Origin: Promethearchaeota archaeon
GTDB lineage: Archaea > Asgardarchaeota > Hermodarchaeia > Hermodarchaeales > Hermodarchaeaceae
Assembly (NCBI GenBank): GCA_048938295.1
Contig: JBHLMI010000040.1
Span: 1-18,466, forward strand
Reading direction: 5' to 3'
Length of the DNA: 18,466 nucleotides
Part shown: piece by piece, positions 1 to 16,560 of the stretch
How positions within the stretch are numbered: position 1 is the stretch's first letter
Layout of the letters: each line of letters opens with the position of its first letter
Program-made: the position numbers and the translations under genes
Notes under the pieces: generated by a model
What the model saw: the letters and a program-made list of their open reading frames with translations, nothing else
The model's database searches: none
Told to the model about the DNA's origin: nothing

Positions 1-606
1 AGACCTACTGGGTAGACAACGGATTTGAGTGAAAGAGTTGTTCCGGAAGACCCGAGTTCGTGACATCATTCTAAGAGTTCCAACCTCTAGCCAGTGCAAC
101 TGCGATCACGCCGTTGTGTTTACCTTCGAGTAAAGAGGAAAGAGTAGAGGAAGGGATCCTTACTGGAACCAGTCAGTGTCTGATTTTGTTTTTTGTTTTC
201 CATTTTTTATCACCACTTTTCTATTCATCTATTCGACTTCTACCACTTTGAACCTCGGCGAGAGGTCATGACTTTGTATGCCAGTTGGAAGTTCGGCGTT
301 GGGTGTGGATTGCGACACCCAAGGGCGGCTCGTTCACCGACGCCGATGCGAGCGAAGCGGATTCTATTCTTTGACATTTGTTACCACCATATGTCCTTAT
401 AATCTTAGTTGCTGAGAATACTATCTACCACTATAATATAAATATATCGGTTTTAGAGAAAAATACTATCAAACAACGAGAACACATACTCAGCTCATGC
501 CACCATCACTTAGCAACTCCCCCACCCGCAAGGGCGTTTGATTGTTGCCACATACCATGAGCATATAAGATGAGAGTTTCGATGAGTCAGACACGGCGTA
601 ATTGAG

Positions 607-1899
607 TTGGTCAAGGTGCGCCTTCGAAGAATACGCAGATTCACAACATTGCTTGTGGTTGCTTTCCTATTTGTCACTCCATCTTTGTGGAGCTATTTTA
701 ACGAAAGTGGCCAAGAAGCGGCGTTACCCGATTATTGGCCGACCGATGGGTGGCGTTCGACGAGTCCGGAAGCTCAAGGGATGAGTTCGGTGCAGCTGCT
801 GGCAATGGAAAACTACATTCAGCAGTTATCATGGGGGCATCTAATCCGGTCGGTTCTAATTGTCCGTAATGGCTACATAGTGTGGGAATCCTATTATGAT
901 CCAGCGTATGGTCCCAATGATCAGTTGAATATTTACTCATGCACAAAGAGCGTGACCTCCGCACTGATTGGTATAGCCATCGCCGAGGAACACATTGGGG
1001 GGGTAAATGAAACGCTCTTGAGTTATTTTCCAGACCGAACCATTGCTAACCGGACAGTTGAGAAGGAGGCCATCACCTTGGAACAGGTGCTAACCATGAC
1101 TTCAGGTCTGGCGTGGGATGAATGGCCCTATGGTCCGGCTAGTAGCTACACTTACCTTGTGAATAGCCCTGATTGGGTGCAGTACGTATTGGATCAGCCC
1201 ATGCGCCATGAACCGGGAACCGTATGGGATTACAATTCTGGAGGCTCCCATCTCCTATCCATGATTATCAACCAGACTGCTGGCACGACCACCCTCGCAT
1301 ATGCCGATAGCCACCTCTTTGCCCCTTTGGGGATTTCAGATTATCAATGGGAAACGGATCCACAGGGAGTCGTGGCTGGAGGTTCGAATTTATATTTGAC
1401 ACCACGTGATATGGCGAAGTTTGGATTTCTGTATTTGAATAATGGCTCCTGGGATGGTGACCAACTGGTTCCCGCAGAATGGGTTGAAAACTCGACTCAA
1501 AATCTGGCAACACCGTATAACGACACGGATACCATTGGCTATGGCTATCACTGGTGGCTCAATTTACCGATTAACACCTATTTGGCAATCGGCTATAATG
1601 GGCAGCAGATTAATGTTGTTCCTGAACACAATCTTGTAGTAGTATTTACCACCTGGTATGAACAGGCAAGCTTTGCATCCATTATGGCAAACTACATAAT
1701 TCCCGCCATTGGATACCAACCGCCACCAATCCCGCCCTTCCCATTCTCTTTTGACCAAATCGTTATGATTGCAACAGTCCTATTGGTGATAGCGGTAGCG
1801 AGCCCTATAGGCCTTGAAATATTCTACCAATTTCACGCTTGGCGAAGCCGTCAAAATTCTGAACAAGCTACAACGGAACAGGAAAATTCCCACTCATAA
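607..1899 (+). CDS. Membrane-anchored serine hydrolase, beta-lactamase class C / penicillin-binding-protein-like family (NylB-like)
   Basis: 430-aa ORF with TTG start (GTG at 616 is an alternative). N-terminal hydrophobic signal/anchor (FTTLLVVAFLFVTPSLW), SxxK nucleophile motif (YSCTKSVTS), Y-x-S second motif (WDYNSGG), AIGYNGQ triad-like strand, LYLTPRDMAKFGFLYLNNG family signature, then a Pro-rich linker and C-terminal TM helix. Confidence 0.9.
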   Translation: MVKVRLRRIRRFTTLLVVAFLFVTPSLWSYFNESGQEAALPDYWPTDGWRSTSPEAQGMSSVQLLAMENYIQQLSWGHLIRSVLIVRNGYIVWESYYDPAYGPNDQLNIYSCTKSVTSALIGIAIAEEHIGGVNETLLSYFPDRTIANRTVEKEAITLEQVLTMTSGLAWDEWPYGPASSYTYLVNSPDWVQYVLDQPMRHEPGTVWDYNSGGSHLLSMIINQTAGTTTLAYADSHLFAPLGISDYQWETDPQGVVAGGSNLYLTPRDMAKFGFLYLNNGSWDGDQLVPAEWVENSTQNLATPYNDTDTIGYGYHWWLNLPINTYLAIGYNGQQINVVPEHNLVVVFTTWYEQASFASIMANYIIPAIGYQPPPIPPFPFSFDQIVMIATVLLVIAVASPIGLEIFYQFHAWRSRQNSEQATTEQENSHS

Positions 1900-1917
1900 A
1901 AAGGAAATTTCACTGGG

Positions 1918-2562
1918 TTATTTGAAACAGGCTCTGAGCTTTTCGAAGAGCTCGGGATTGTTGAGGACGATGGCAAAGGTGCTGACAGAGCTTAGGATCT
2001 TGTCTTTATAGGCCCAGTCTATTCCTGTGATTATATCAATAAGTTCATCATCAGCTTCTTCAATGAGCTTGACGACGTATTTGGTACCAATTTTATCAAA
2101 TTCGTTCATGAATTTCACAATACATGTTTTGTCGGCTTTCTTATCATTTAGGAGTTTACCGAGGAGTTGGGCTACATTATCACATAGTTCTTTTCCAGCT
2201 TCGCAACTCCAATATTCCTCTTCGCTTTGTCCACCGATGAACACCTCGGCGGTTCGAGAAAATAGTGTTTCTGTTGCGGTTTTACCAATGACAACCCTTT
2301 GGCCCGCTGGAACGACCACCTTGGCATCTTCCAAGACCTTCAGGTAACGATAAATGGTTTTATCTGATTTTGCTTCCAGATCGGGATCAGCTTCTGCCTC
2401 CTTGGCATAGGCTTTTGTGAGTTCTTGAACCGTCATGGGTCCTTTCCGTAACGCCTTAATGATGGGGATATGATTAGGATCCCGTAGGACTTCGTTCATA
2501 TTTTTGTCATAAACAATTTTGATTCGTTCGGGTTTGAAAGTGATTACATCTTGTTGGGCCAT
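1918..2562 (-). CDS. Winged helix-turn-helix (ArsR-like) transcriptional regulator with helical C-terminal domain
   Basis: 214 aa. IIKALRKGPMTVQEL...KSDKTIYRYLKVLEDAKVVVPAG is a winged-HTH pattern. AGGTGA SD lies just upstream of the ATG at 2562. Confidence 0.8.
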   Translation of the reverse strand: MAQQDVITFKPERIKIVYDKNMNEVLRDPNHIPIIKALRKGPMTVQELTKAYAKEAEADPDLEAKSDKTIYRYLKVLEDAKVVVPAGQRVVIGKTATETLFSRTAEVFIGGQSEEEYWSCEAGKELCDNVAQLLGKLLNDKKADKTCIVKFMNEFDKIGTKYVVKLIEEADDELIDIITGIDWAYKDKILSSVSTFAIVLNNPELFEKLRACFK

Positions 2563-2682
2563 CTAATCATCACCTGAGTTTGTTCTCAGACAGAGATAGA
2601 GTTATTTTCGTACATAATCTTTTTTTCTCAAACGATGAGAATATTACTTTAATGAAATGTGATACTTTGCTACTTTTTAAAT

Positions 2683-4338
2683 CTATTCTTCAAGCAACTT
2701 AACGTCGTCACCGGTTAATCCATACAACTTGTTGACCATGTCATTGATCTCGTGATCTAATCCCTTTTGAAGGGATATTGGGTTCTGGGCAGCTAGTTTA
2801 GCGAGGCCTGCAAGTTTTTCTTCCTGGTGTGGGGTCGGGGTTACTATGGGGATTTGTTCGAGATAGGTGGCATTGTAGCGGATGTACCCACTGCGGAGAT
2901 GCGTGGCGACGAATAGCAGGGAGAAAAAGGCATTGATAAGACGAGAGTTGAGTAAGCCTAGCAGGAAACGGGGATTGTAGGAGGTGCGAGTGTGAGTGAT
3001 GTAGTAGACGCGGCCGAGAGCGTGTCCAGTTTCGTCGAGGGCGACGCGGAGGCGTTTAGCCATGCCAGCGATAACGAGTTTGGGTTCTTTGAAGTCTTGC
3101 CATTGATCCTGTGAGGACATGGTTGGGGTGAAAGTAAGGTATTTTTTACACCGAAGCTTGTACCGTTGGACATCACCGGCGTTGAGAAAGGGGAGCGTTT
3201 TAGCTTGTGAAGCTTTGCTAAGCTTATCATATGCGCTGACTGAGAGTAGGTGTTTGGTGAATCCAGTCTTGGCGATACCGCATCGGATGGTGGTTGCTTG
3301 ACCTAGTGGAATGGTGTTATGAAGGAGTTTTCGGAGAATTGAGAACTTTTCTTCTGTTAAAGAAGGGGCTAGAATCGTGTTAGGTAGGGTATTATAGTAA
3401 TGTTGGGGAACTGAGCGGGCAGCCATGTTGGTTTTGGAGATGTCGTTTGGCTGACTTGGGGGTCGGGGAAGTTGGACTCTATTTTGATGCACTTCATCCG
3501 GAATTCGGGGTTTTCGGATAACAATGAGATGGGGGTAGGCTGCAGCGTCTTCGAAGGCATTGAGGTGGGATAAATCTACCATTTGCTCAATCACGTAATT
3601 CTTAACGAGGGTCTTTCGAAGGACGCTTCCATAATCTGCAGCAAGGACTTTGTTACTGATGACATAGCCTAATCGTCCACCTGGTCGCAGGAGGTCTAGA
3701 CCAAGTTCGATGAAAGGGATGAGAATATCAAATTGCTGGTGAACCGTGCGGTAACGGTGACGAATGTAGGTTTTGAGTTCAGGTTCTATGGATTTGATGC
3801 TGAGGAAAGGGGGATTACCAATGATTGCATCGAAGCCTCCTTCCCGCATAACCCAGGGATAGACACGGTGCCAATCAACTGGAAACTTTTTGGGAAGAGC
3901 GTCTCCAAAAACGTCTTGTGCATGTTGATCGGTTTGGATAAGACTATTTCCCAACAGAATACGTTGGGAGAAATCTGCAGGCACTCCTAGAAGCTTGTTG
4001 CTCACTTGTTCGAGGTGTCGTTGACATTGCGCGAGTGCTTTGGGGTCCACATCAATGCCGTGGATACTATCCACGATGCTACGAAGGAATAAATGCTGTT
4101 TATCCATTGGATAAGATTTGACCTTTTCTGCCAGGAATCGTAGAACGCCAGTAAGAAACGCACCGTCGCCACAAGCTGGATCAAGGACAGTGAATTCTCC
4201 AAGTAGCCGTACAGGATCTTCACTCAATGCTGGGCTGAGTGTATGGCGGATGAGATAATCGACTATCCAGTCAGGGGTGAAGAATTGACCCAGCCGCTTA
4301 CGTTGAATTCTTATCCTCTTCCGTCCCTTTGGTGTCAT
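2683..4338 (-). CDS. N6-adenine/N4-cytosine DNA methyltransferase (gamma class, TaqI/Eco57I-like) with C-terminal target-recognition domain
   Basis: 551 aa. Motif X GQFFTPDWIV, motif I (SAM binding) VLDPACGDGAFL, HGIDVD, motif IV IIGNPPF, and a TaqI_C-like tail (FLLGLLNSRLINAFF...RYNATYLEQIPI). GGGAGG SD-like sequence upstream. Confidence 0.9.
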   Translation of the reverse strand: MTPKGRKRIRIQRKRLGQFFTPDWIVDYLIRHTLSPALSEDPVRLLGEFTVLDPACGDGAFLTGVLRFLAEKVKSYPMDKQHLFLRSIVDSIHGIDVDPKALAQCQRHLEQVSNKLLGVPADFSQRILLGNSLIQTDQHAQDVFGDALPKKFPVDWHRVYPWVMREGGFDAIIGNPPFLSIKSIEPELKTYIRHRYRTVHQQFDILIPFIELGLDLLRPGGRLGYVISNKVLAADYGSVLRKTLVKNYVIEQMVDLSHLNAFEDAAAYPHLIVIRKPRIPDEVHQNRVQLPRPPSQPNDISKTNMAARSVPQHYYNTLPNTILAPSLTEEKFSILRKLLHNTIPLGQATTIRCGIAKTGFTKHLLSVSAYDKLSKASQAKTLPFLNAGDVQRYKLRCKKYLTFTPTMSSQDQWQDFKEPKLVIAGMAKRLRVALDETGHALGRVYYITHTRTSYNPRFLLGLLNSRLINAFFSLLFVATHLRSGYIRYNATYLEQIPIVTPTPHQEEKLAGLAKLAAQNPISLQKGLDHEINDMVNKLYGLTGDDVKLLEE

Positions 4339-4409
4339 TGACCCAGTTAGCCTCCCACCGTCTTGTGTCGTAGTTTATGACATCCGCTATCACATCAACA
4401 GGACTTCTA

Positions 4410-5930
4410 CTACTTAGTTGTTCTCTTCTTCGAGGATTTTGAGGTGGATCTCGTTGATTGGCGTGTTCTGGATTTAGCATTATTGATGATTTGTTCAGCT
4501 CTTTCTGGTGAGATAGAAAGAGCCTGAGCAAGTGACTCAGGGTCAGCACGAGCGACCAGTTGGGGAGTTTCGTACCCCTCATCGCGAAGTGTTTTAGCTT
4601 GCTTACTAGTGACTCCGGTGGTATTCATCAGATGGTTAATTTCGGTCTCGATTTGTTGTTCGATGCTACGAAGTGAAGTATCCACTTCTAAATCGCGGAG
4701 GGCGCGACTCACTTGGCGGCTATCCACACTCACATCGATGTCTTCGACGAGCCGTTCGTTCCATATCACTTCTCGAGCATTCGTAAGTGGAAAGATGCTG
4801 ATTAGCACCAATGAAGCCGCGATGGGATAGACTAGCAAAGAAAAGTGAGTGACGGATGAGGACATGGTAATCCACCAAATCACGGCTACAAGACAGCCCA
4901 CCATTAACCAGCCAAATGCCGCATGGCGTCCCTTCATTCGAACCGAACCGATTTCTGCCCAAACGAGCCAAGCCCCTACTCCAATGATTAACGCGGCTAC
5001 AAAGATTGTTAGGAGGGATAAGATGATTGAAACAGAATCACGTATGATAGGATCAAAATGAGCGCCACCAAAGATGCATAATAATCCCAGGAGAAGAGTA
5101 CCGATATTGAAGACGATTTTCCGCCCAAACTTGAATGGTACTAAGGCGAACACAAACACCGCTCCACTCAAACCTATTAGAATAAGTTCGGCGGGGAGCA
5201 GTCCGCTTGCAATTAGAAATAGTCCATTAAAGACGTGTCGATAGTTAGGAGGTGTCGCCCACACGTATAAGCCGAATGCAGCCAGATAGATGACCCACCA
5301 GACAGCATAGGGTCGGATAAATCCAGGAACCATGTAGGTTTGCAACTCACCTTTCCAAGGCTGAACAAAAAATGCAATAAGTAAACCGAAAAGGATCAGG
5401 CCTGCCGTGACGGCTGGTACAAAATTTGTGGTACCAAAGATAGTCCAGAAAAAGAGAAGAATAGCTGAGATGAACAGGCCGATTGCTGTGGTGATAGCTA
5501 CAACCCGTTCACGATTAACACTGGAGACTAACCGATTGAGAAAGATGGTGAACATCACCAGTGCGCAGCCAAACAGGAAAAGGAGAAGGGTGAGGAGGAG
5601 TTGACCGAATAGGGTGGACCAGACATCGGGTGGAAGAATCCATTGGGCGATTCCGATTACAAGAATCATTGCCTGAAAAACTATAAGGAGAAGAGTTCTC
5701 CCTGGCAGTTTGTCAGCGATAAACCCACCGATGATGAGACCGAGGAATAATCCGAGAATCGCTGGAAAGAGAGGAGAAGGATTAGTTTGAAGAACTGGAC
5801 GCTTAAACAAGAGAAAGGCTATGACCCATGTGAAGGGTAGGGTAAGTATTGCCGCCGTTGCCCAGTTTCTATCGATTTTCATCGAATTAGTCTCCACAGA
5901 TTCCACATAAGTTGGTCTGAACATTAGCAA
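4410..5930 (-). CDS. 12-TM MFS-fold membrane protein fused to C-terminal helix-hairpin-helix domain and basic tail
   Basis: 506 aa; the true start could be TTG 5930, ATG 5924 or ATG 5882. About 12 hydrophobic segments with MFS motif-A-like loops GGFIADKLPGR and PFKFGRK. C-terminal TGVTSKQAKTLRDEGYETPQLVARADPESLAQALSISPERAEQIINNA matches the RadA-N/HHH_5-type pattern, followed by an S/K/R-rich tail. Confidence 0.75.
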   Translation of the reverse strand: MLMFRPTYVESVETNSMKIDRNWATAAILTLPFTWVIAFLLFKRPVLQTNPSPLFPAILGLFLGLIIGGFIADKLPGRTLLLIVFQAMILVIGIAQWILPPDVWSTLFGQLLLTLLLFLFGCALVMFTIFLNRLVSSVNRERVVAITTAIGLFISAILLFFWTIFGTTNFVPAVTAGLILFGLLIAFFVQPWKGELQTYMVPGFIRPYAVWWVIYLAAFGLYVWATPPNYRHVFNGLFLIASGLLPAELILIGLSGAVFVFALVPFKFGRKIVFNIGTLLLGLLCIFGGAHFDPIIRDSVSIILSLLTIFVAALIIGVGAWLVWAEIGSVRMKGRHAAFGWLMVGCLVAVIWWITMSSSVTHFSLLVYPIAASLVLISIFPLTNAREVIWNERLVEDIDVSVDSRQVSRALRDLEVDTSLRSIEQQIETEINHLMNTTGVTSKQAKTLRDEGYETPQLVARADPESLAQALSISPERAEQIINNAKSRTRQSTRSTSKSSKKRTTK

Positions 5931-6027
5931 GGAGGGATTATAAGGGTTTCAATGGAGAAGCGATTTTAACAACACAAAGGTTAATCAACGCGGGCTTTTA
6001 GTATTGGTCAAACCTTGGTGACATCAT

Positions 6028-7296
6028 TTGCCGGTTAGAGAGATTATTGTTCTACGAAAAGGCGGTATGCCCTTGTTCAATTTTGCACCCGATGGGGCTC
6101 CGAAGCTTGATGCCCTCGTCGCCGGGTTTCTCTCAGCCCAAGCAGGATTTGCGGAAGAAATCGGTGAAGGGCAGATAAGGGTTGTCACCTTTGCTAAAAA
6201 TAAATTTGTTTACGAGAGTCATGCAGACCTGCTTTTCATTATTGCCATTGGTGAAGCCGACGATGAGAACATTTACCGTTTAATTATCAAGGAAATAGCC
6301 CAAGCTTTCGAAAAACAATACAGCGATGTTTTGCTACAATCGGTAATTTCGTCCCACCTCTTTGTCGGGTTTCGTGAATACGTCATGGAGATCTTAAAAA
6401 AATATGATAAGATTCCTAAAATCCAGCAACGATACCCAACAGCAATTCTTCCTCCTGAAAATCTCGATAAGATAGAGGAACTGCTCAACATCATTGAGGG
6501 ACTGCGTGGCATTCTACGTGCCGCACTTCTCACACAGGATGGATTCGTAATTGTGTCAAAGTTATTGCAGTATGAGCTTGAAGTAGGTATCAAGCAAATC
6601 CATCAATCCCGTAAAATTGAGCTGCCAAGTTATTTTGCTGTGTCTCAGACTACTTTGGAAGAAGGTACAAAGCTCTTTATTCATCACGTCAAACCAGTTT
6701 TGGTTTTGTTATTGATTATCCGTGAGGATTTGAAAGTCGGTCGATGCGCAGAAATGATTTCACCGTTGGTTTATGGACTTAGCAACATTGATTATTCGAG
6801 CATGGTAAAAATTCAACCGAAAACGTTAGTTACAGAAACCTTCTCGGAGTTTGATGTCTTCACATCCAATCCTATGATGGAAAGCACACTTTTTGCTGAA
6901 AGCACAGGACAAGCCCGAGAATTTGACAATTTATTTGGTAAAGCAGGCGGGGATGTACTCCAAGCCATTGACGGAATATCCACAGTAGAAGAAATCCGCA
7001 CACGAACCGGTGTCTATGGACGTCAGTTATCTGAAATTCTCAGCTATCTCTCTTCTCGTGGATACATCCGACGGATTCAATTTTATCCAAAACTTACTGC
7101 CAGCGATCGGAGGTTCCTCGCTTATCTGGAAACCGTTGGACTCCCACGAGATGAATACAAAATCTTAGAGGATGCTAAAACCTACTGCGACGGTAATAAC
7201 ACTACTAATGATATTGCCCAACGTATTGGAGTGGATGAAGTAAAGCTTATCACTGTGTTGCGAAAACTGGGGGGGAACATTGAATGGTTGACCTAA
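6028..7296 (+). CDS. Multidomain longin + roadblock-like + tandem winged-helix protein (C-terminus NPRL2-like)
   Basis: 422 aa with TTG start and GGTGA SD at 6017-6021. aa 1-~125 follow the longin pattern (IIVLRKGGMPLF...LVAGFLSAQAGFAEEIGEGQIRVVTF...LLFIIAI...IAQAFEKQY). aa ~145-255 are roadblock/profilin-like (GILRAALLTQDGFVIVS). aa ~272-422 carry two IDG/CDG-type winged-helix repeats. Confidence 0.7.
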   Translation: MPVREIIVLRKGGMPLFNFAPDGAPKLDALVAGFLSAQAGFAEEIGEGQIRVVTFAKNKFVYESHADLLFIIAIGEADDENIYRLIIKEIAQAFEKQYSDVLLQSVISSHLFVGFREYVMEILKKYDKIPKIQQRYPTAILPPENLDKIEELLNIIEGLRGILRAALLTQDGFVIVSKLLQYELEVGIKQIHQSRKIELPSYFAVSQTTLEEGTKLFIHHVKPVLVLLLIIREDLKVGRCAEMISPLVYGLSNIDYSSMVKIQPKTLVTETFSEFDVFTSNPMMESTLFAESTGQAREFDNLFGKAGGDVLQAIDGISTVEEIRTRTGVYGRQLSEILSYLSSRGYIRRIQFYPKLTASDRRFLAYLETVGLPRDEYKILEDAKTYCDGNNTTNDIAQRIGVDEVKLITVLRKLGGNIEWLT

Positions 7297-7395
7297 ACCA
7301 ATGCTTTAATAACGCAAAATTCTAACCTCGAATCAAGAACCAAAGATTCAGATTCACAATATTAACGGAATGTGAACGCTCAGGCGGATACTGTA

Positions 7396-8172
7396 ATGGG
7401 TAAAATCGTCACCGTACACAGTTTCAGAGGCGGTACCGGTAAAAGTAACCTAACAGCCAACCTTGCAACCTATGCGGCAATGAAAGGTCGAAGCGTTGGT
7501 GTCATGGATACTGATATTCAAAGCCCCGGATTACACGTCCTCTTTGGTCTGGGTGGAGAACGATTCAAATATACCCTGAATGATTATCTTCGAAAGAAAT
7601 GCACCATCGAAAAAGCCGCCATTGATCATACCAAAGCCATGAAATTACAATCTGGGAAGCTGCATGTCATCCCAGCAAGCCTCAACGCCGATGATATATC
7701 CACTATTATTCGCGAAGGGTATGAGGTAGCCGACCTTCGTCAAGGCTTTAAGCAAATTATGCAAGCCAAGCAGTTGGATTATCTCTTCATTGACACTCAC
7801 CCGGGTATGGATCAAGAAACCCTCTTGTCCATTGCAACGACAGACTTGTTGTTTGTTATCATGCGGCTTGACCAACAGGACTTTCTGGGCACCGCGATTA
7901 CCCTAGCCCTGGCGAAAAAGTTTGGGGTGCCGTCCACTTATATCGTGTGCAATAAAGTTCCTGGCATTTATGATTTTGATAAAGTGAAAAAAGACATCGA
8001 GCAAGAGTATGGCTTTGAAGTGGCCTCAGTCGTCCCACTTTTTACCCGGTTAATTGAGTTGGGAAGCCGGCAAATCCTGGTCCAGGTGAGTCCAAGTCAC
8101 CTATTTGCCCAGAACATCAATGAGCTTTTTAAACGATGTGAAGCGACGCTCAATAACTCGGTGAAACGCTAA
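7396..8172 (+). CDS. MinD/ParA-family (SIMIBI) ATPase
   Basis: ATG at 7396 gives MGKIVTVHSFRGGTGKSN; the ORF track starts at GTG 7372. Deviant Walker A RGGTGKS, switch I DTDIQSPGLHVLFG, Walker B FIDTHPG, and CNKV. Confidence 0.9.
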   Translation: MGKIVTVHSFRGGTGKSNLTANLATYAAMKGRSVGVMDTDIQSPGLHVLFGLGGERFKYTLNDYLRKKCTIEKAAIDHTKAMKLQSGKLHVIPASLNADDISTIIREGYEVADLRQGFKQIMQAKQLDYLFIDTHPGMDQETLLSIATTDLLFVIMRLDQQDFLGTAITLALAKKFGVPSTYIVCNKVPGIYDFDKVKKDIEQEYGFEVASVVPLFTRLIELGSRQILVQVSPSHLFAQNINELFKRCEATLNNSVKR

Positions 8173-8206
8173 AAGAGAAAAGAGGGGGACGCTGCAGAAA
8201 GCGTCC
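8171..8206 (-). terminator. Hairpin plus U-rich tract between convergent genes (probable terminator of the minus-strand protease gene)
   Basis: Perfect 7-bp stem GGACGCT (8187-8193) / AGCGTCC (8200-8206) with a 6-nt loop. On the minus strand it is followed by CCCTCTTTTCTCTTTT. Confidence 0.6.
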
Positions 8207-8218
8207 GGATTGTGTTTT

Positions 8219-10126
8219 CTAGCGTCGATGCCGTCGATATACGACTCCAAGACTGACTGCAAGGATTGCTCCTAATGCAATTGCCTCAAATGGGAATCCT
8301 GGAATTCCTGGCGGAAGGGGAGGCAACACGATTACGGTGATTTGGTGTGAACTACTGAGCCCTGAAACGTCGAAGACTGTGACATTGAGAAGATACGTGC
8401 CTGGGATGAGATTGGAAATTGTGGCATTCGTTACGGGAGCAATGATGGTTGTGAACAGTGAACCATTCAGATAGATGTCAGTTGAACTGTAACCTGAGCC
8501 AGTTTCAATCACTGACCAGGTTATATCGAAGGGGGGAAAGACTGCATCACCTGTGTTGGGAGCCGTAATGGTCACAGAAGGATTTGTAATGTCGATATTT
8601 ACCTGATAATGAGCTGCTTCTGAGCCGATATTTCCAACACTGTCTTTACTGACGACATGTAGATACCAAGTGCCATCTATTAGAGGAATTGTGGGGAGTG
8701 TCCCGTTTATGGTAGTATATGTTCCGGTTGTAGCGGTTGGAATGGTTGTTGGATTTTGATCTAGGATATAATAGTATCCAGCGATGCTATTCACGTCAAT
8801 GGGGATGCTCCAGTTGAATTGGGGATAGGGGTTGTTTGACCACTGGGAGGGATCAGGATGTGTGGTCGATGATATCGTAGGAGGAAGTGCAGTAACGTCA
8901 TGATGTGTGGTTAGGAATGGGTCTCCTATGATGTTCATTCCATAATACCATTCAATATAATAACTACCAGCTGTCGCTCCACCATTTATCCACCAGTTTT
9001 TGAAACCATCACCAAGTGTCTGATTTTGTCCCAATGGAGAATAGAAGTATTGACAGTCCATCATTCCACCAGTTTTTGATGAGCCAATTGCACCAAGACC
9101 GTAGCTGCCACTAAATACGTAAGTGACAGCGATATTGTCAGAAATGGTCCATTCAGCACCATGACAGCAAAACAGATTGTAGAAGTTGAATGCAGGAGGA
9201 ACGGCTCTAACTTGGGCAGAGGTTATACTCACTGTTGGAGTATGGAATTGATGAGAGGTGGCAGTACTGTGTGCGCAAAGATGAGCCCATTTGTAATCTA
9301 GTGCAATCCTGTTTAGCCAATCTGCAGCCGTTGTTGAGGCGTTAGCATTTACTAGTGTTCGAGTGGAGAATGCGTTACCTACATCACCGTCCCAAAGGGT
9401 GCTCCAATAGTTTGACCAATCATCATCGACGTAGACTAGGGCACGATGTTGTCGCAGAAGGCTGCCAATTCGGTAACTGTGAGCACGAGCCAAATACGTG
9501 TTGATATGATTCGCGGTTCCGGTGCCCCAAGTTAAGCAAGTAGGATCGATTCGACCAACATAGATCTCTGGATCTGTATCAGCACCGGCTGATGCATTAT
9601 GCACATCGTAAGCACCAGTTGGTGTTGTAGTATCATACCAATTACCATCGAGATCCATAAGATACAGGTCACAGATGAATCTTTCAGAAGAAAATTGTCC
9701 CGATGCTGGATGGTAAAATTCTGCATAGGGGAGCCGACCAATTAGAACTGCCCCTTTGAAATTAGAATGGGTATTGTACCACGAAGTTAGATTGCTTTTA
9801 AGTTCTTGAACGGTGTTGAGTGTTTGAGTATAGAGAATCGTGTTATATCCTGTATTATTGAGGTCCGCTCGATATTGCGTTACTGCAGAAGATACACTGG
9901 AGTATAGGGTGTTCTGCACAATAATCGCCACGGTTTCTGATGGTGGTGGAATCGGCAGTATTGGGTCAGATAATGCTGAACTCTGGAGCTCCATTGGAGA
10001 AATGATGAGTGAGTTACTGGGCTGAATCTGTTCTGATGAGGCAGAAGGTATAATATTAGCCAGAAAGAGAATAATAACAAATATTCCGAAGATAAGAGCT
10101 GCTTTTCTCATGATTTCTGCTTCCAT
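8219..10126 (-). CDS. Secreted, surface-anchored gingipain-like cysteine peptidase (family C25-like) with Ig-like domains and PGF-type C-terminal anchor
   Basis: 635 aa; start is 10126 or the Met of MRKAAL. Signal peptide; C25-like motifs GAVLIGRLPY, CDLYLMDLDG, PEIYVGRIDP, putative catalytic His (CAHS) and Cys (NLFCCHG), and IIGDPFL. Thr/Pro-rich beta-rich domains follow (ITNPSVTITAP, GTYLLNVTVFD). Ends IPGFPF-TM helix-YRRHRR. Confidence 0.8.
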   Translation of the reverse strand: MEAEIMRKAALIFGIFVIILFLANIIPSASSEQIQPSNSLIISPMELQSSALSDPILPIPPPSETVAIIVQNTLYSSVSSAVTQYRADLNNTGYNTILYTQTLNTVQELKSNLTSWYNTHSNFKGAVLIGRLPYAEFYHPASGQFSSERFICDLYLMDLDGNWYDTTTPTGAYDVHNASAGADTDPEIYVGRIDPTCLTWGTGTANHINTYLARAHSYRIGSLLRQHRALVYVDDDWSNYWSTLWDGDVGNAFSTRTLVNANASTTAADWLNRIALDYKWAHLCAHSTATSHQFHTPTVSITSAQVRAVPPAFNFYNLFCCHGAEWTISDNIAVTYVFSGSYGLGAIGSSKTGGMMDCQYFYSPLGQNQTLGDGFKNWWINGGATAGSYYIEWYYGMNIIGDPFLTTHHDVTALPPTISSTTHPDPSQWSNNPYPQFNWSIPIDVNSIAGYYYILDQNPTTIPTATTGTYTTINGTLPTIPLIDGTWYLHVVSKDSVGNIGSEAAHYQVNIDITNPSVTITAPNTGDAVFPPFDITWSVIETGSGYSSTDIYLNGSLFTTIIAPVTNATISNLIPGTYLLNVTVFDVSGLSSSHQITVIVLPPLPPGIPGFPFEAIALGAILAVSLGVVYRRHRR

Positions 10127-10245
10127 TGCAAGACTAGCTAAGAAGTATTAAAACGCCTTAGCTGGAAACCTGGCATACACTCAGGAATGTGACTTTAAGT
10201 AGGTTTGTCTAGACTGAATGATTAGAAAACCTAGTTTGCGTGAAT

Positions 10246-11202
10246 CTAAACTTCGACCCCAAGATCGAAGGCCCGAACGAGTTCTTTGTACCGGTTGCGT
10301 ACGGTGACCTCGGTGACTCCAGCAACTTCGCTAATTTCGCGTTGGGTTCGGCGTTCACCTTCCAGAATCGAAGCAATATAAATGGCTGCAGCGGCGATGC
10401 AAGTGGGGTCCTTGCCTGAGGTGATGCCCTTGGTCCGGGCTTTCATGAGAATATCAAGGGCTCGGGCATGGGTGCGTTGGGAGAGTTTGAGGGCATTGGT
10501 ATAACGTGAAACGAAATCCTCTGGTTGGGTGATGGGCATTTGGAGTCCCAGTCGTCGGACAATGAGTCGATACGATCTGCCTAGTTCCTTGCGTCCAACC
10601 CGTGTATATCGTCCGACATCGGCTAAGGTTCGAGGGAAGCTAGTGAAACGACAAGCCGCATAGACACACGCCGCAACAATGGCTTCGATGCTGCGTCCAC
10701 GAATGAGGTTCTTATCTAGAGCTCGTCTATATAGAAGAGCAGCAGACTGCCGGACTCGTTGAGGCAGGTCCAATTGCCCAGATAAGCGATCAAGTTCACT
10801 CATGGCACTAGCGAGGTTCCGTTCACTGGCTTGGTAGACTCGGCTGCGGTTGTGCCATTTACGGATACGTTGCATTTCCGCTCGTCGATGGGCATCGAGC
10901 TTATGTCCTCGCGCATCCACATCTCGCCAATCGATGGTTGTGGAGAGTCCACGGTCGTGCATGGTGAGTGTAGAAGGAGGTCCAGCACGGGCTCGTTTAT
11001 CGCGTTCTTCGGGCGAGAATTCACGCCATTCGGCTCCAAAATCGAGAACATCATCGCTAATTACAAGGCCACAATTGGAGCAGACAAGTTCACGTGAAGA
11101 TGTCATAATAAGGTGGTTGCTTCCGCAGTTAGGGCAGGTTTGTGGTTCGTCCTCTGAAGGGGTTTTATCTGGTTGAGCCTTCCGTCGATTGTTTTCTGAC
11201 AT
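10246..11202 (-). CDS. tfb: Archaeal transcription initiation factor IIB
   Basis: Likely start is ATG 11202 (MSENNRRK); the ORF track extends to GTG 11262. Zn ribbon CPNC...CSNCG, B-reader GAEWREF...RARAG, STTIDW, two cyclin repeats (LIRGRSIEAIVAACVYAACR; GKDPTCIAAAAIY), and the BRE-binding HTH TQREISEVAGVTEVTVRNRYKEL. Confidence 0.97.
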   Translation of the reverse strand: MSENNRRKAQPDKTPSEDEPQTCPNCGSNHLIMTSSRELVCSNCGLVISDDVLDFGAEWREFSPEERDKRARAGPPSTLTMHDRGLSTTIDWRDVDARGHKLDAHRRAEMQRIRKWHNRSRVYQASERNLASAMSELDRLSGQLDLPQRVRQSAALLYRRALDKNLIRGRSIEAIVAACVYAACRFTSFPRTLADVGRYTRVGRKELGRSYRLIVRRLGLQMPITQPEDFVSRYTNALKLSQRTHARALDILMKARTKGITSGKDPTCIAAAAIYIASILEGERRTQREISEVAGVTEVTVRNRYKELVRAFDLGVEV

Positions 11203-11282
11203 AGGTATCGGATCCGAACCCATCCTATCCGGCACGCACGTGGGGAAAGACGCGTTCCCCACCCAAACAGTGGATATTTGTC

Positions 11283-11289
11283 ATTTAAA
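11283..11289 (-). promoter_or_regulatory. Putative TATA box for tfb
   Basis: TTTAAAT on the minus strand. Typical archaeal spacing would place the TSS near 11260, about 60 nt upstream of the ATG at 11202. Confidence 0.45.
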
Positions 11290-11407
11290 GATGCTGCCTT
11301 AGGCATGGAAGGTTCTTTCCACCTGTAGCAAACGAAAATAAACAAGCGAATGCTAGTATTGGTTCAAAATGCCTTGATAGAATCAAAAAAATTGAGGAAC
11401 AGAGTGA

Positions 11408-12448
11408 ATGCCTTCACTTACTCCATTCCAACGTGTTATGATGCTACTTCGTGGTAAGCTCCCGGATCGTGTTCCTGTTATCCCCCAAATCACCTATACG
11501 ACCGCTCAGATAACTGGAGTGGGTCTAGTTGAAGCTCTAAATAGCCCTGAAAAGACTGCAGAAGCGCTTTTAGCTGGGCAACGTGAACTTGGATATGATG
11601 CTATCTATGTTGGATGGGAAAGTTCGTTTAATTTGTTAGCTGAGGCGATGGGATGTACGATGCGATTCCCGGAAGATTCAGTTCCACAAGTGGCGGATCA
11701 TATCATCAAGTCACCTAGCGATATCGATAAGGTGGCGATTCCAGACCCCCATCGCTCTGGGCGGTTACCGCTCCACATGGAAATGGTGAAACTTGTCAAA
11801 GATGAGGTCCAAGGTGATGTGCCTCTTTTTGCCTACACTCCGGGTCCATTCACCTTGGCTGGACAGCTTGCTGGTGTCAATGCTTTAATGGTAGCGACGA
11901 TTCTCAATCCCGAATTTATCCGCACCCTCCTCAGTCTGACCACAAAAGCTTCCATGCGGTATGCCCTGGCCAATGTTGAAGCAGGTGTTAATGTCATTGT
12001 AACAGCAGATCCTACGGCTAGCGGTAGCCTCATCAGTCCAAAGACATTTGCAACCTTTGCAGCCCCGCATCTTGCTCAAGTCGCTAAGGCAGTTACCCGG
12101 GCAGGAAGTATTGCCTCTCTGCATATTTGCGGAAAAACAACTTCGATATTAGACCAGATGGCAAGTACAGGAGTAAGAATATTGGAACTCGATCACCTTG
12201 TGGATATACGCGAGGCACAACAGCTCATCGGACAGCAGGTGATTCTAATGGGAAACTTGAATCCAACTGAACTTCTCTTGAATGGAACACCAGCTGAGGT
12301 AGAGGCCGCGGCAAAGTGGTGCATTGAAACCGTAGGTTTAGATGGACATTATATTCTCAGCAGCGGCTGTGAGGTGCCACCGTTAACCCCACTTAATAAT
12401 ATCCGGGCAATGGTAGCAGCAGCAGAAAAATATGGACGATTCAGCTAG
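11408..12448 (+). CDS. MtaA/CmuA-family (URO-D fold) methylcobalamin:thiol methyltransferase (MT2)
   Basis: 346 aa. PDRVPVIP N-terminus, AEAMG, GPFTLAGQL, DPTASGSLISP, zinc-ligand motif LHICG, C-terminal SSGCEVP, and LMGNLNP. Confidence 0.88.
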   Translation: MPSLTPFQRVMMLLRGKLPDRVPVIPQITYTTAQITGVGLVEALNSPEKTAEALLAGQRELGYDAIYVGWESSFNLLAEAMGCTMRFPEDSVPQVADHIIKSPSDIDKVAIPDPHRSGRLPLHMEMVKLVKDEVQGDVPLFAYTPGPFTLAGQLAGVNALMVATILNPEFIRTLLSLTTKASMRYALANVEAGVNVIVTADPTASGSLISPKTFATFAAPHLAQVAKAVTRAGSIASLHICGKTTSILDQMASTGVRILELDHLVDIREAQQLIGQQVILMGNLNPTELLLNGTPAEVEAAAKWCIETVGLDGHYILSSGCEVPPLTPLNNIRAMVAAAEKYGRFS

Positions 12449-13237
12449 TTAGTCTGTATGAATAGGCGATGTCAGATCCACGGGAATGGACTGATCAATG
12501 ATGATCTCGTGGCCTGATTCGTCAAAGCGTGTAGTCCAAGCGTAGGCTTCAACTCCATGGTTGACGGCTTCACGTAAAATAATTCCAAACTCCGGATCGA
12601 CAGGGTCATTCGGTCGCAGTCTCGCTGCATCTGTGCGCTGGACAATAAATACTATAGCTGCGCGATACCCCTCATCAATAGCTTGCATAAGCTCCCGAAG
12701 ATGGCGTTGTCCACGGTCGGTGGGGACGCGGGGAAATAAGCCGATATTGTTCACAGCATCGGTCGAAGATTTTGCCTCAATGTAGCATGGAGAGATGCCC
12801 TCTGAGCGAAGAAGAAAGTCGAGACGACCCTCACGGTATTGGGGTTCGGCGATGCATTCACTATACTGTGAAAATGGAGTTAGTTGACCTTGGGGAAGCG
12901 CTTCGGCTAGAATCCAGTTAGGAACGCGGCAATCAAGAGAGAGCAGAACCCCTTTGCTACGTGAACAGACTAAATCGTAATCGGTTTTCCTGTGAACGCC
13001 TGGGCTGTATCGAAGCAGGACCTCGACCCCCGGAAAGAGTAAATCAGGCATAGGCCCTGGATTGGGGATATAAGCTTGAACACGTTTTCCGTTGAGTTGG
13101 CAAATCGTGAGAAACCGATTGGGGCGTTCGAGAAAATTTCCGTAATAGAAGGGTCCTTGTAGTTTCACAGAGAGGGCTCCTGTTAATCTTCTCTCTTTGC
13201 CCTGTTTTGCCCCTTTATGATTCTTCGCCTCGTGCAT
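12449..13237 (-). CDS. sfsA: Sugar fermentation stimulation protein A (OB fold + PD-(D/E)xK nuclease-like)
   Basis: 262 aa. FLERPNRF, AYIPNPGPM, RLDFLL, YIEAKS, FPRVPTDRGQRHLREL, and FIVQRTDA...DPEF are SfsA signatures. Confidence 0.93.
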   Translation of the reverse strand: MHEAKNHKGAKQGKERRLTGALSVKLQGPFYYGNFLERPNRFLTICQLNGKRVQAYIPNPGPMPDLLFPGVEVLLRYSPGVHRKTDYDLVCSRSKGVLLSLDCRVPNWILAEALPQGQLTPFSQYSECIAEPQYREGRLDFLLRSEGISPCYIEAKSSTDAVNNIGLFPRVPTDRGQRHLRELMQAIDEGYRAAIVFIVQRTDAARLRPNDPVDPEFGIILREAVNHGVEAYAWTTRFDESGHEIIIDQSIPVDLTSPIHTD

Positions 13238-13254
13238 CCCACGAAGCTGTATGC

Positions 13255-13261
13255 TTATATA
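13255..13261. promoter_or_regulatory. Putative shared TATA element (TTATATA) between divergent sfsA and the cysK-like cluster
   Basis: This is the only clearly TATA-like sequence in the 68-bp gap 13238-13305, and it reads TATATAA on the minus strand. An AGGAG SD at 13292-13296 precedes the ATG at 13306. Confidence 0.4.
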
Positions 13262-13305
13262 CGGGCTAGTCCATGCTGCGACTGATTTGTTAGGAGTTGT
13301 TTATT

Positions 13306-14352
13306 ATGTCCTTAGACTGGGAAAAATACAAGCAGGTCCAAGAGAATGTCTTTGACCTCATTGGGCTAACGCCCTTGTTGCGCTTACCAAAGATTAGCGA
13401 GAAAGCCGGAGTCAATATCCTAGGAAAGATCGAATGGTATTCTCCCACAGGTAGTTTGAAAGACCGTATTTACTACAAGATGGTCCACGAAGCCATTGAC
13501 CGTGGTGACTTAAAACCAGGCATGGAAATCATCGAGTCGTCAACCGGAAATGCTGGTATTGCCTGTTCCTTTGTTGGTCGAATGTTGAACTACCCAGTGA
13601 CCATTATCATGCCTGAAGGGATGAGTCAAGAACGCCGAAAACTCATGGCCGCGTATGGCGCTAAGATTACCTTCACACCAGGTGGTGAATCCGATGTGGA
13701 CTTGTGTCTGAAAAAAGCGAAGCAGCTTAAGGAGCAGAATCCAGGAAAATATTGGGAACCAGCACAGTTCAGTAACCCAGATAACCCTCTCGCCCATTAT
13801 GAAATGACAGGGCAGGAAATATGGGAGCAGACCACTGGAAAAGTGGATGCATTCATCGCTAGCCAAGGTACTGGGGGAACAATTACAGGCGTGGGTCGAT
13901 TTTTGCGGGAGAAGAATCCGAAGGTGAAACTCTATGCTATTGAGCCCACAGAAGCGCCCCTACTCGCACATCGAAAATGGGGATCTCACCGCATTGAAGG
14001 TATTGGTGATGGGTTTGTGCCAGTAAATCTCGATTTGAGCATGCTAGACGGAATCATTACTACCACTTCTGACGAAGCTTTGGAAATGGCCCAATGGCTC
14101 AGTCGTGAAGAAGGACTCTTTTGTGGAATCTCATCAGGGTGCAATGTTGCTGCAGCTCTAAAGCTAGCCAAGCGACACCCTGAACTCAAGACGATTGTGA
14201 CCATGATTAACGACAGTGGACAACGCTACTTCAGCACTCCGTTGTGCGGTGAACCAAAAGTTCTGGATATCCCAGACAGGGAACATCCTATGGATACACG
14301 AACCAAAACCGAACTTGACAAATACCAGCATAGTTGGGAAATCATTGAGTAA
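13306..14352 (+). CDS. PLP-dependent cysteine synthase family enzyme (fold type II, CysK/CysM-like)
   Basis: Likely start is ATG 13306 with AGGAG SD. IGLTPLLRL, PLP lysine motif PTGSLKDRI, substrate loop ESSTGNAG, QFSNPDN, phosphate loop GTGGTITG, IEGIG, EGLFCGISSG, and DSGQRYFST. Confidence 0.9.
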   Translation: MSLDWEKYKQVQENVFDLIGLTPLLRLPKISEKAGVNILGKIEWYSPTGSLKDRIYYKMVHEAIDRGDLKPGMEIIESSTGNAGIACSFVGRMLNYPVTIIMPEGMSQERRKLMAAYGAKITFTPGGESDVDLCLKKAKQLKEQNPGKYWEPAQFSNPDNPLAHYEMTGQEIWEQTTGKVDAFIASQGTGGTITGVGRFLREKNPKVKLYAIEPTEAPLLAHRKWGSHRIEGIGDGFVPVNLDLSMLDGIITTTSDEALEMAQWLSREEGLFCGISSGCNVAAALKLAKRHPELKTIVTMINDSGQRYFSTPLCGEPKVLDIPDREHPMDTRTKTELDKYQHSWEIIE

Positions 14353-14386
14353 CACAATAGTACCAGTGAGATAAGGTGCATACTGA

Positions 14387-15037
14387 ATGGGAAATGAAAT
14401 TGTTGATGAAATTCGTGAAGAGATGATTAATTGTCAGACTGAACGAGTTCTCGACCTTGTTCCGAAGGCCATTGACCAAGGAATTGATGCAACTATTATT
14501 ATCAACAAAGGACTTACGGCAGGTATTCGAGTGTTAGGTGATCGATTTGAAAAAGGCGAAGCCTACTTGCCAGAACTCGCAGTGGCAGCAGAAACGATGA
14601 AACAGGCCCTCGAATTCCTTGAACCTCATCTGGTCAAGTCTCAAGACGAGGACGCCCTGGGAACCATCGTGATAGGAACGGTGCAAGGGGATATCCATGA
14701 GATTGGAAAATCAATTGTGGCAACTATGCTCACGGTGGCTGGATTTACCGTTTATGATTTAGGTGTCGAGGTGACACCGGCTCAGTTCGTCTCCAAAGCC
14801 AGGGAAGTGAACGCCGATATTATTGCGATGTCTGCGTTATTGACCACGACCATGGACCGGATGCAAGAAACCATCGAGCTATTAAAAATGGAGAAGCTTG
14901 ATCAACGGATAAAAATCATGGTGGGTGGAGCACCAGTCAGCCAAGATTTCGCAGACAAGATCGGTGCTGATGGTTACGGTGTTGACTTTAATCAGGCAGT
15001 GAAAATCGCGAAACAGCTGACAGGCAAGACAGAATGA
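14387..15037 (+). CDS. Methyltransferase cognate corrinoid protein (MtbC/MttC/MtgC-like)
   Basis: 216 aa. N-terminal cap (GDRFEKGEAYLPEL), cobalamin-binding DxHxxG motif GDIHEIGKSIV, DLGVEV, MSALLTTTM, and MVGGAPV. Confidence 0.95.
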   Translation: MGNEIVDEIREEMINCQTERVLDLVPKAIDQGIDATIIINKGLTAGIRVLGDRFEKGEAYLPELAVAAETMKQALEFLEPHLVKSQDEDALGTIVIGTVQGDIHEIGKSIVATMLTVAGFTVYDLGVEVTPAQFVSKAREVNADIIAMSALLTTTMDRMQETIELLKMEKLDQRIKIMVGGAPVSQDFADKIGADGYGVDFNQAVKIAKQLTGKTE

Positions 15038-16536
15038 TGAAACAGCATCGGAGACAAGAGATATTGACACAACGACCCCAATTCAAACTGCTCTCGGAGC
15101 AGGAAGTTCATCGAATTCACTCAGAAAGCCTCCATTTGCTTGAGGAAGTTGGGATGAAAATCCAAAGTCATGACGCATTAGAGCTCCTTAAAGAAGCCGG
15201 AGCCTCAGTAAATTTTAACAAGGAACATGCCTATTTCCCCTCTTCACTCGTCGAAGAGCAACTAAAGCATGCACCCTCCTCAATCCAGTTATTTGACCGT
15301 GAAGGGCATCCAGCTGTTCTCCTTGAAGGAGATCAAGTCCAATTCAATCCAGGCTCGGCTGCAACGCATATTTTGGACCACGAAACCGGTGCACGACGTC
15401 ATCCAACCGTCAAAGATGTTATCGACTTCGCCCAGGTAACTGAGGCGTTACCTTACATCGATGCTCAAAGCACTGCCCTCATCCCCGCAGATGTACCTCC
15501 ACTCCTCGCGGATCGTTATCGGTTATACCTACTCCTTCAGCACTCAACAAAACCCATCATAACCGGCACTTTTGCGCTTGATGCTTTTAACGATATGAAG
15601 CAAATGCTTGAAGTTATAGCAGGGGGACCCAAGAAGCTCCGAGACAAACCACGAGCCATCTTTGATACGTGTCCATCTGCCCCATTACAATGGAGTGAAC
15701 TGACAGTTCATGATCTCCTATTTGGTGCATCCGCCGGAATTCCAATTGAACTTATTTCAATGCCCCAACTTGGAGCAACCGGTCCGATTACTATCGCTGG
15801 GTCGTTGGTATTGCATAATGCTGAGTCGCTGAGCGGTGTTGTACTCGCCCAACTTGCAAATAAGGGTGCACCGGTAATTTATGGCGGTTCTCCCACAGCT
15901 GTCGATATGCAGTATGGAACAGCGCGGCTTGGAGCCATTGAAAGCATGATGCTTACATGCGCCTATGCACAGATAGCAAAGCATTACAATCTCCCAACCC
16001 ACGGGTACATGGGCCTTTCAGACGCTAAAATTGGTGCCGATGCCCAAGTAGGTTATGAGGCAGCAACTGGATTTCTCCTTGCAGCGATGTCAGGAATTAA
16101 TAACATCGCGGGTGCTGGAATGCTTATTTTTGAAAGCACCCAAAGTTATGAAAAACTAGTCATCGACGACATGCTTGCGGGGATGGTGAAACGGTTCATG
16201 ACCGGCGTTGAAGTGAATGATGGCACCCTTGCCTTGGATGAGCTCCGAGAAGTTGGGACCAAAGGTGGCGATTTCCTCCGCTTGCGGCACACGCTAGCCT
16301 GGTTCCGGAAAGAGCACTACATGCCGGGTAAATTAGTCGACCGCCAACCGTTCGAAAGCTGGCAATCCCAAGGAGCATTGACCAGTTTAGACCGGGCTCG
16401 TGAGCGTGTCCAAGAAATTCTAACCACCTACGACGTACCCACGCTAAACAACTCACAACTTCAAGATTTGAACGCGATTGCTAAAACCTTCATGAAGCGT
16501 CATAAGAGTTCCTCGCTGCCCCATGGTCCAAGCTGA
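15034..16536 (+). CDS. Trimethylamine methyltransferase (MttB) superfamily protein, non-pyrrolysine type
   Basis: 500 aa with ATGA overlap with the corrinoid gene. GATGPITIAGSLVLHNAESLSGVVLAQL, GAPVIYG, SDAK, GAGML...SYEKLVIDD, and TLALD...VG match MttB/MtgB. The residue just before SDAK (Pyl in Methanosarcina MttB) is Leu (CTT, 16015-16017), and there is no in-frame TAG. Confidence 0.93.
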   Translation: MMKQHRRQEILTQRPQFKLLSEQEVHRIHSESLHLLEEVGMKIQSHDALELLKEAGASVNFNKEHAYFPSSLVEEQLKHAPSSIQLFDREGHPAVLLEGDQVQFNPGSAATHILDHETGARRHPTVKDVIDFAQVTEALPYIDAQSTALIPADVPPLLADRYRLYLLLQHSTKPIITGTFALDAFNDMKQMLEVIAGGPKKLRDKPRAIFDTCPSAPLQWSELTVHDLLFGASAGIPIELISMPQLGATGPITIAGSLVLHNAESLSGVVLAQLANKGAPVIYGGSPTAVDMQYGTARLGAIESMMLTCAYAQIAKHYNLPTHGYMGLSDAKIGADAQVGYEAATGFLLAAMSGINNIAGAGMLIFESTQSYEKLVIDDMLAGMVKRFMTGVEVNDGTLALDELREVGTKGGDFLRLRHTLAWFRKEHYMPGKLVDRQPFESWQSQGALTSLDRARERVQEILTTYDVPTLNNSQLQDLNAIAKTFMKRHKSSSLPHGPS

Positions 16537-16542
16537 AAGTAC

Positions 16543-16560
16543 TCTAATTTGTTAATTAGA
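16543..16560. terminator. AT-rich inverted repeat just after the MttB-like gene (possible terminator or operator)
   Basis: TCTAATT-TGTT-AATTAGA is a perfect 7-bp stem starting 7 nt after the stop codon. It is weak (all but two pairs are A-T). Confidence 0.3.

Follow-up and report, generated by a model that had tools for sequence, protein, structure and literature searches.

What is a protein with the fold of a membrane transporter doing with a helix-hairpin-helix (HhH) domain of the DNA repair type? The question is raised by a gene on the reverse strand of an 18,466-nucleotide stretch of Asgard archaeal DNA (Promethearchaeota archaeon, GenBank assembly GCA_048938295.1, contig JBHLMI010000040.1, positions 1 to 18,466), referred to here as the window. 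A sequence-only reading had proposed that the gene encodes a major facilitator superfamily (MFS) protein fused to a cytoplasmic DNA-binding module, and that the product could be a membrane tether for the chromosome, a nucleic-acid or nucleotide uptake factor, or a transceptor. The architecture proved to be real and conserved; among the three roles, that of a transceptor gained indirect support from the deeply conserved linkage of its gene to those for NPRL2/3-like longin proteins and for a MinD-type ATPase, and that of an uptake factor found no support. The product, here called the MFS-HhH protein, is a genuine, conserved Asgard membrane protein that joins a transporter fold to a DNA-repair-type HhH tail and probably contributes the membrane part of an uncharacterized sensing or positioning module. 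Proteins of this kind are at present annotated merely as "HhH domain-containing" or "hypothetical." Literature searches returned no description of the fusion or of this membrane partner, in agreement with the earlier impression that it is uncharacterized; both the conserved cytoplasmic HhH tail on an MFS-fold protein and its linkage to an Asgard eukaryote-signature module appear to be unreported.

The open reading frame called mechanically spans 4410 to 5930 (-) and comprises 506 amino acids counted from a TTG codon at 5930. This start was rejected, as all 36 database homologues begin at a methionine equivalent to the ATG at 5882 (pattern MK[IL]xxNW) and a conserved block resembling a B recognition element (BRE) and TATA box (5934 to 5951) lies within a few bases of the TTG. 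The real gene therefore extends from 4410 to 5882 (-), encodes 490 amino acids and ends with a double stop, TAG TAG. Residue numbers below refer to this 490-residue form, and coordinates are positions in the window.

The first 368 residues (4779 to 5882 [-]) form the membrane domain. An AlphaFold2 model, built on an alignment of 29 sequences, has a mean pLDDT of 81.3 and a pTM of 0.71 and contains twelve long helices arranged 6+6, matching the roughly 12 transmembrane (TM) segments counted earlier. A Foldseek search against the PDB gave 196 matches at an E value of ≤1e-3, and every listed one is an MFS carrier: SfMCT (6hcl/6g9x), VMAT2 (8wlk), OxlT (8hpj), DgoT (6e9o), SV2A, and PfHT1. The best matches reached an E value of 2.5e-6 and a probability of 1.00, with target-normalized TM scores of 0.57 to 0.64, and the structural rows of the ESM Atlas were likewise MFS, which bears out the fold proposed by the sequence-only reading. 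Pfam MFS_1 (PF07690) did not reach its gathering score and was undetected in the protein at an E value of ≤10; 3 of the 29 family members matched it weakly (best E value, 2.9e-5). Pfam and NCBIfam scans of the whole protein yielded no transporter family, and the sole MFS match of the family profile among PDB sequences was marginal (9kmq; E value, 0.42). Because sequence models gave no transporter family, the MFS assignment rests on the fold, and the protein as modeled is of MFS fold and lies outside every named MFS family.

As in known MFS carriers, the twelve TM helices form two bundles of six, with motif-A-like loops following TM2 and TM8 and Arg/Gly loops following TM4 and TM10. Unlike those carriers, the protein has no MFS_1 match, very short loops, a 120-residue cytoplasmic tail with HhH motifs, and no charged residue in the middle of any TM helix (helix/charge table), and canonical motif A is stronger in the C-terminal than in the N-terminal half of its family. 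No MFS subfamily can be assigned, identities being 13 to 17%.

Both motif-A-like loops noticed earlier are real, when compared in the alignment with the reference pattern G-x-x-x-D-[RK]-x-G-[RK]-[RK] of the TM2-TM3 and/or TM8-TM9 loop. The loop of the N-terminal half, GGFIADKLPGR (TM2-TM3, residues 53 to 63; 5694 to 5726 [-]), keeps the Gly and Asp of the motif, and D57 is invariant in both clades aligned below. The loop of the C-terminal half (TM8-TM9, residues 248 to 255; 5118 to 5141 [-]) reads VPFKFGRK, against a family consensus of LPDKLGRK that represents canonical motif A, so the second loop is without Asp250, which has become Phe. The conserved Asp250 is lost in the MFS-HhH protein and its two closest relatives. 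In these proteins, replacements were in fact seen at three positions that are acidic in most of the family: the TM3 Glu (residue 70) is replaced by Gln, the Asp of the second motif A (residue 250) by Phe or Asn, and the TM10 Glu (residue 292) by Thr. The loss of these three acidic positions may point to relaxed or altered transport in this sublineage.

The tail following TM12 should be cytoplasmic, since the established topology of MFS proteins is N-in/C-in. It consists, in order, of an acidic motif, a long helix, an (HhH)2 domain and a basic end. Residues 369 to 411 (4650 to 4778 [-]) comprise the acidic motif next to the membrane (NERLVEDIDVSVDSRQVSRALRDLEV...) and the beginning of the long helix. 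The motif has low pLDDT in the AlphaFold2 model and a net charge of -2 to -13 in nearly all family members, and judged by alignment and charge it is the family-specific conserved cytoplasmic element. The linker helix is predicted to span 35 residues (388 to 422), its first half at low confidence.

Residues 418 to 470 (4473 to 4631 [-]; pLDDT of 82 to 86) form an (HhH)2 domain of the RadA/Rad51 N-terminal type, which agrees closely with the RadA-N-like HhH pair that had been placed at about 4475 to 4630. Pfam HHH_5, for which the cutoff is 27 bits, reached 29.2 bits with the whole protein and 32.8 bits with just the tail, and it is present in all 29 family members. The family profile matched the N-terminal domains of RadA/Rad51 (1pzn and 1b22) and the HhH of haloarchaeal eL32 (1s72_Y) with E values from 4.8e-7 (1pzn, the best match) to 8e-6. 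All of these share the HHH_5 pattern L..G....A..L...GY.T...A.......L.....IS...A..I...A. Unlike in RadA/Rad51, however, the domain here is C-terminal on a membrane protein without a recombinase core, stands between the acidic motif and a basic tail, and has a divergent first hairpin, which reads G-V-T in the MFS-HhH protein and G-V/I/L-T in its clade; Thor-type homologues have the canonical PG[IV]G. The second HhH unit reads S-I-S or G-I-S, like RadA, and the charge of the domain is near neutral across members (-3 to +3). HHH_5 domains mostly bind DNA, and HhH domains are also able to mediate protein contacts, as in the AR domains of NusA.

The strongly basic end recognized by the sequence-only reading is a Lys/Arg/Ser/Thr-rich tail, RTRQSTRSTSKSSKKRTTK (residues 472 to 490; 4413 to 4469 [-]), with a net charge of +8 over 19 residues. 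The terminal segment carries +3 to +14 in the close clade and is shorter in most Thor-type members, at +0 to +9; three diverged copies have slightly acidic terminal segments instead. A basic low-complexity segment is kept beside the HhH domain in all three clades, having moved in front of the domain in genome G310. A word-indexed search for other architectures with this tail, limited by its index, returned the same family alone. Weak matches to CdrL_M, DUF7898, and EcoR124_C were below their cutoffs and were dismissed.

The word-indexed search recovered 36 homologues (38 to 77% identity; nearly all 480 to 520 residues), all from Asgard metagenome-assembled genomes (MAGs) and most of them carrying HHH_5; the nearest named records are MAGs labeled Hermodarchaeota and "Promethearchaeota." An exhaustive search of 1.84 billion representatives found just 16 matching proteins. 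Within the window's own family (f1, Hermodarchaeota-labeled MAGs), a match was present in 18 of 18 genomes and was full length or cut by a contig end in 17, the other genome (G097, 72% complete) giving an HhH-level match alone. Diverged copies of 500 to 600 residues occur in one genome of family f30 and in most of family f31, which is Thor-type by Atlas cluster label; in the rest of the phylum, the whole-genome search gave isolated HhH matches alone. Neither of the outcomes that the sequence-only reading had held against itself, a C-terminal region without an HhH match or a fusion confined to this assembly, was observed: the match is present and the fusion occurs in many assemblies. From this distribution it follows that the fusion is old, lineage-restricted, and genuine.

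An alignment of 29 close and 21 diverged sequences was used to find residues shared across the deep split, i.e., present in at least 80% of both groups. In the membrane domain these are D57 of motif A; R124 and G125 of the TM4-TM5 loop; P175, G187, and Y192 of the TM6-TM7 loop; D250, G253, R254, K255, and F258 of the second motif A; and W308, E310, G312, K317, R320, and W325 of the TM10-TM11 loop. In the tail they are E376, E380, D387, V391, S406, I407, and Q410 of the acidic motif and L418, G423, L432, G436, Y437, A444, A462, I465, and A469 of the HhH core. None of the residues conserved in both clades is a mid-membrane polar residue. Constraint thus falls mainly on the cytoplasmic face and the tail.

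The genes kept beside the MFS-HhH gene suggest what the tail may serve. Its head-to-head partner (6028 to 7296 [+]) encodes a 422-residue NPRL2/3-like protein of longin, roadblock, and tandem winged-helix domains. Pfam matches of this protein are weak (Clat_adaptor_s, TrmB, and HTH_NPRL3), and its AlphaFold2 model contains a longin-like domain, a roadblock-like domain, and two winged helices. The top Foldseek matches are NPRL2/3 chains of GATOR1 (9v0j_B; E value, 2.6e-10), with Mon1-Ccz1, Fuzzy-Inturned, and BLOC-3 next. The low global TM scores (about 0.25) are no surprise in a flexible model of several domains. The protein is acidic overall, with winged helices that are near neutral to acidic. 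The gene fits the description of the NPRL2-like longin proteins of Thor and Loki genomes, a family with a longin and an NPRL2-like C-terminal domain that has been reported from most Thor MAGs (Liu et al., bioRxiv 10.1101/2020.10.19.343400). The text of that study, searched for MFS and helix-hairpin-helix, contains neither term.

The longin gene is followed in both clades by a gene for an ATPase of the MinD/ParA superfamily (7372 to 8172 [+]; Pfam ParA/CbiA/AAA_31) with the P-loop RGGTGKS, which scores far below the cutoffs of the NCBIfam minD_arch and ParA models. In the window and in Thor-type homologues (e.g., L061:3341-4105), Arg stands where the deviant Walker A motif has its signature Lys. 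The C-terminal segment of the ATPase (...EFTKxIxxIYxxI...) is amphipathic in appearance, and it may be a helix that targets the membrane like that of MinD.

Gene order throughout the region is the same across the close clade, which on its own carries little information. In Thor-type genomes, the MFS-HhH protein is 22 to 27% identical to that of the window, yet the linkage is kept. In all 15 fetched f31 loci, the MFS-HhH gene stands head-to-head with paralogues of about 300 and 430 residues of the longin neighbor, and a homologue of the MinD/ParA-type ATPase comes next in most of them, two loci stopping at a contig end. The same arrangement was found in seven further genomes whose MFS part the profile had missed, and about 33 more are in the same state, judged from coordinates. 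In f1, the head-to-head gap measures 133 to 174 bp in 16 of 16 assessable genomes. Exceptions are G312, in which the genes are rearranged, and G310. Other genes of the window, namely the β-lactamase-family gene, the ArsR-like gene, the DNA methylase, the Ig-like protein, and transcription factor B (TFB), are unlinked in the 15 Thor-type loci. The two longin paralogues of the Thor-type loci (L046 to L068) lie in tandem between the MFS-HhH and ATPase genes and bring to mind the heterodimer of NPRL2 and NPRL3; at this locus, just the long paralogue is present in the window's clade, and one genome (G000) has a second match elsewhere.

We tentatively favor the reading that the MFS-HhH protein is a carrier or transceptor and that its tail either docks the longin/ATPase machinery or is positioned by it. 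The protein would be the sole membrane component of a module whose other members are one or two NPRL2/3-like longin proteins and the MinD/ParA-type ATPase. As the cytoplasmic gating motifs are the best-conserved part, the MFS body is proposed to cycle between conformations. The tail would act as a docking platform that recruits the longin/ATPase machinery to the membrane or that serves to position the MFS-HhH protein itself, its basic end and HhH domain binding a polyanionic partner, which could be the strongly acidic longin protein, the ATPase, or DNA. Fold, domains, conservation, and gene linkage were observed directly; any physical interaction, the ligand transported or sensed, and the direction of signaling are inferences. 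This reading is favored because the protein is the sole membrane protein of the module, because its cytoplasmic face and tail bear the constraint, because the longin partner is acidic while the end of the tail is basic, and because eukaryotic longin complexes are recruited by transporters. Indeed, eukaryotic longin complexes acting as GTPase-activating proteins are brought to membranes by transporters, such as PQLC2 for the C9orf72-SMCR8-WDR41 (CSW) complex (PMC12290439).

The resemblance to such transporter-anchored sensing systems (SLC38A9 with Rag-Ragulator, PQLC2 with C9orf72-SMCR8-WDR41, and GATOR1 with NPRL2/NPRL3) lies in the combination of a polytopic transporter, paralogous longin proteins, and a nucleoside triphosphatase (NTPase), and in a transporter with a long cytoplasmic tail. 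The systems differ in that the pairing described here is known from genomes alone, the carrier is of MFS rather than amino acid-polyamine-organocation (APC) or PQ-loop fold, and the tail bears HhH motifs. Several points weigh against our reading. The linked NTPase is a MinD/ParA-type ATPase and not a Rag/Arf GTPase; therefore, the analogy to GATOR1 and SLC38A9 is loose. The canonical PG[IV]G hairpins of Thor-type members and the HHH_5 assignment would accord with DNA binding no less than with docking. In the G310 lineage, the MFS-HhH gene and the longin/MinD pair are on different contigs. When identity is down to about 25%, it is chiefly the motif-A residues that remain conserved in most MFS families, so the absence of a conserved cavity is weak evidence. 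Finally, head-to-head pairs of regulator and transporter genes are common for trivial reasons.

A more far-reaching form of the proposal, in our view doubtful, is a pre-eukaryotic nutrient-sensing or membrane-positioning machine in which the MFS-HhH protein would be the receptor or transceptor and an NPRL2/NPRL3-like longin heterodimer would regulate the MinD-type NTPase on the transporter tail. If true, this would be an archaeal forerunner of the principle by which lysosomal transporters (SLC38A9 and PQLC2) anchor longin complexes of the GATOR1, FLCN, or CSW type. NPRL2/3-like longin proteins count as eukaryotic signature proteins of Asgard archaea, and the MFS-HhH family would supply the sole membrane component of their module. 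Because the tail is short, soluble, and accessible to expression and assay, it becomes testable whether the longin complexes of archaea, like those of eukaryotes, assemble on a transporter. Should the tail bind DNA instead, it would provide an unusual direct link between a carrier fold and the nucleoid in archaea. Either outcome would give a role to a protein now left without a functional name in databases.

Such DNA binding is central to the strongest competitor, which we consider somewhat unlikely: the (HhH)2 domain and basic tail would bind DNA nonspecifically and the MFS body would be mainly an anchor, so that the protein would either hold the chromosome to the membrane or be a DNA-bound membrane cargo positioned by the ParA-like ATPase. 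The HHH_5 domain is of the RadA/Rad51 N-terminal type, and the Thor-type hairpins are canonical, but the domain is near neutral and its first hairpin in the window's clade is not G-h-G. Likewise, the basic segment accompanies the domain in all three clades, G310 included, but the conserved element that is most specific to the family has a strongly acidic character. The loss of the Asp of the second motif A and of two semiconserved membrane Glu residues in the window's protein would suit an anchor; in the family, however, there is conservation of the gating motifs that a working carrier has and for which an inert anchor would have no use. A ParA/MinD-superfamily ATPase is indeed linked, as in MinDE, ParABS, and the archaeal SegAB system, where a deviant-Walker-A ATPase gene likewise stands beside candidate partner genes, and a basic disordered peptide on the partner is a common ATPase-stimulating element in ParA/MinD systems. 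Unlike in those systems, family scans found no ParB-, SegB-, ribbon-helix-helix-, or MinE-like gene among the window proteins, and hence no candidate centromere-binding gene; the partners here are longin/roadblock proteins, and the ATPase, as noted, falls well short of the family models.

The tether would also gain from the gene downstream. An N6-adenine DNA methyltransferase of the Eco57I/TaqI_C type (551 residues; 2683 to 4338 [-]) follows the MFS-HhH gene on the same strand after 71 nucleotides and is kept directly downstream, at 67 to 86% identity, in every fetched close-clade locus that reaches that far. The spacer has no conserved promoter-like block, a Shine-Dalgarno-like GGGAGG alone being conserved, so cotranscription is possible in the close clade. 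No nuclease domain was detected in the methylase, which has the look of a core orphan enzyme, perhaps cotranscribed with the MFS-HhH gene. However, the linkage is absent from the Thor-type clade, which places the methylase outside the core module.

A rather improbable explanation is that the locus consists of an ordinary MFS solute transporter and a divergent winged-helix transcription regulator, with the HhH tail as an accessory regulatory or oligomerization appendage unlinked to the ATPase. The divergent intergenic region (5883 to 6027) has the layout expected of such a pair, with back-to-back promoters marked by two BRE/TATA-like blocks, the one at 5934 to 5951 for the MFS-HhH gene and one at 5973 to 5986 for the longin gene; Shine-Dalgarno-like GGAG/GGTGA sequences are conserved as well. 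Yet a search for a conserved operator in 5883 to 6027 revealed no operator-like palindrome beyond the two promoter blocks and the ribosome-binding sites. The C terminus of the longin protein has TrmB-like winged-helix matches (E value, 1.6e-5), but its whole architecture fits NPRL2/3 and tri-longin guanine nucleotide exchange factors rather than TrmB regulators, and its winged helices are neutral to acidic. The MFS gating motifs, intact in the family, would suit an ordinary transporter; the strong constraint on the tail, the coconserved MinD-type ATPase, and the second longin paralogue of Thor-type genomes would not.

An uptake factor in which the HhH domain passes DNA, RNA, or nucleotides to or from the MFS channel is very improbable. 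All that speaks for it is that a transporter fold stands next to a domain of the nucleic-acid type, but the HhH domain should lie on the cytoplasmic side, after TM12 of an N-in/C-in fold; polymers do not pass MFS cavities; the cavity is apolar, without charged residues for nucleotides; and no competence, nuclease, or nucleotide-salvage genes are linked in the window or the fetched f31 loci. An assembly chimera or gene-calling artifact, to which the overextended TTG start of the mechanical open reading frame list and nothing else pointed, has a practically negligible probability and was refuted by homologue and whole-genome searches, which recovered the same architecture in dozens of independent MAGs from several studies and three deep clades.

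The remaining gene content of the window is archaeal and Asgard-like, with TFB, an Arf-family GTPase, and a nonpyrrolysine MttB with its corrinoid protein. The MttB-family gene (15034 to 16536 [+]) is an uninterrupted reading frame of 500 amino acids without an in-frame TAG. A match to Rfam PYLIS_3 inside it (16015 to 16117) is right at the gathering score (38.2 versus 38) and probably reflects homology of the coding sequence, not a functional element for pyrrolysine insertion. Upstream of this gene lie those for the corrinoid protein (14387 to 15037) and a PALP enzyme (13297 to 14352). The GTPase gene (16673 to 17551 [+]) encodes a protein of 292 residues, in which an unassigned N-terminal extension of about 125 residues precedes a small GTPase domain of Arf/Roc/Ras-like type (Pfam Arf, 69.8 bits) at the C terminus.

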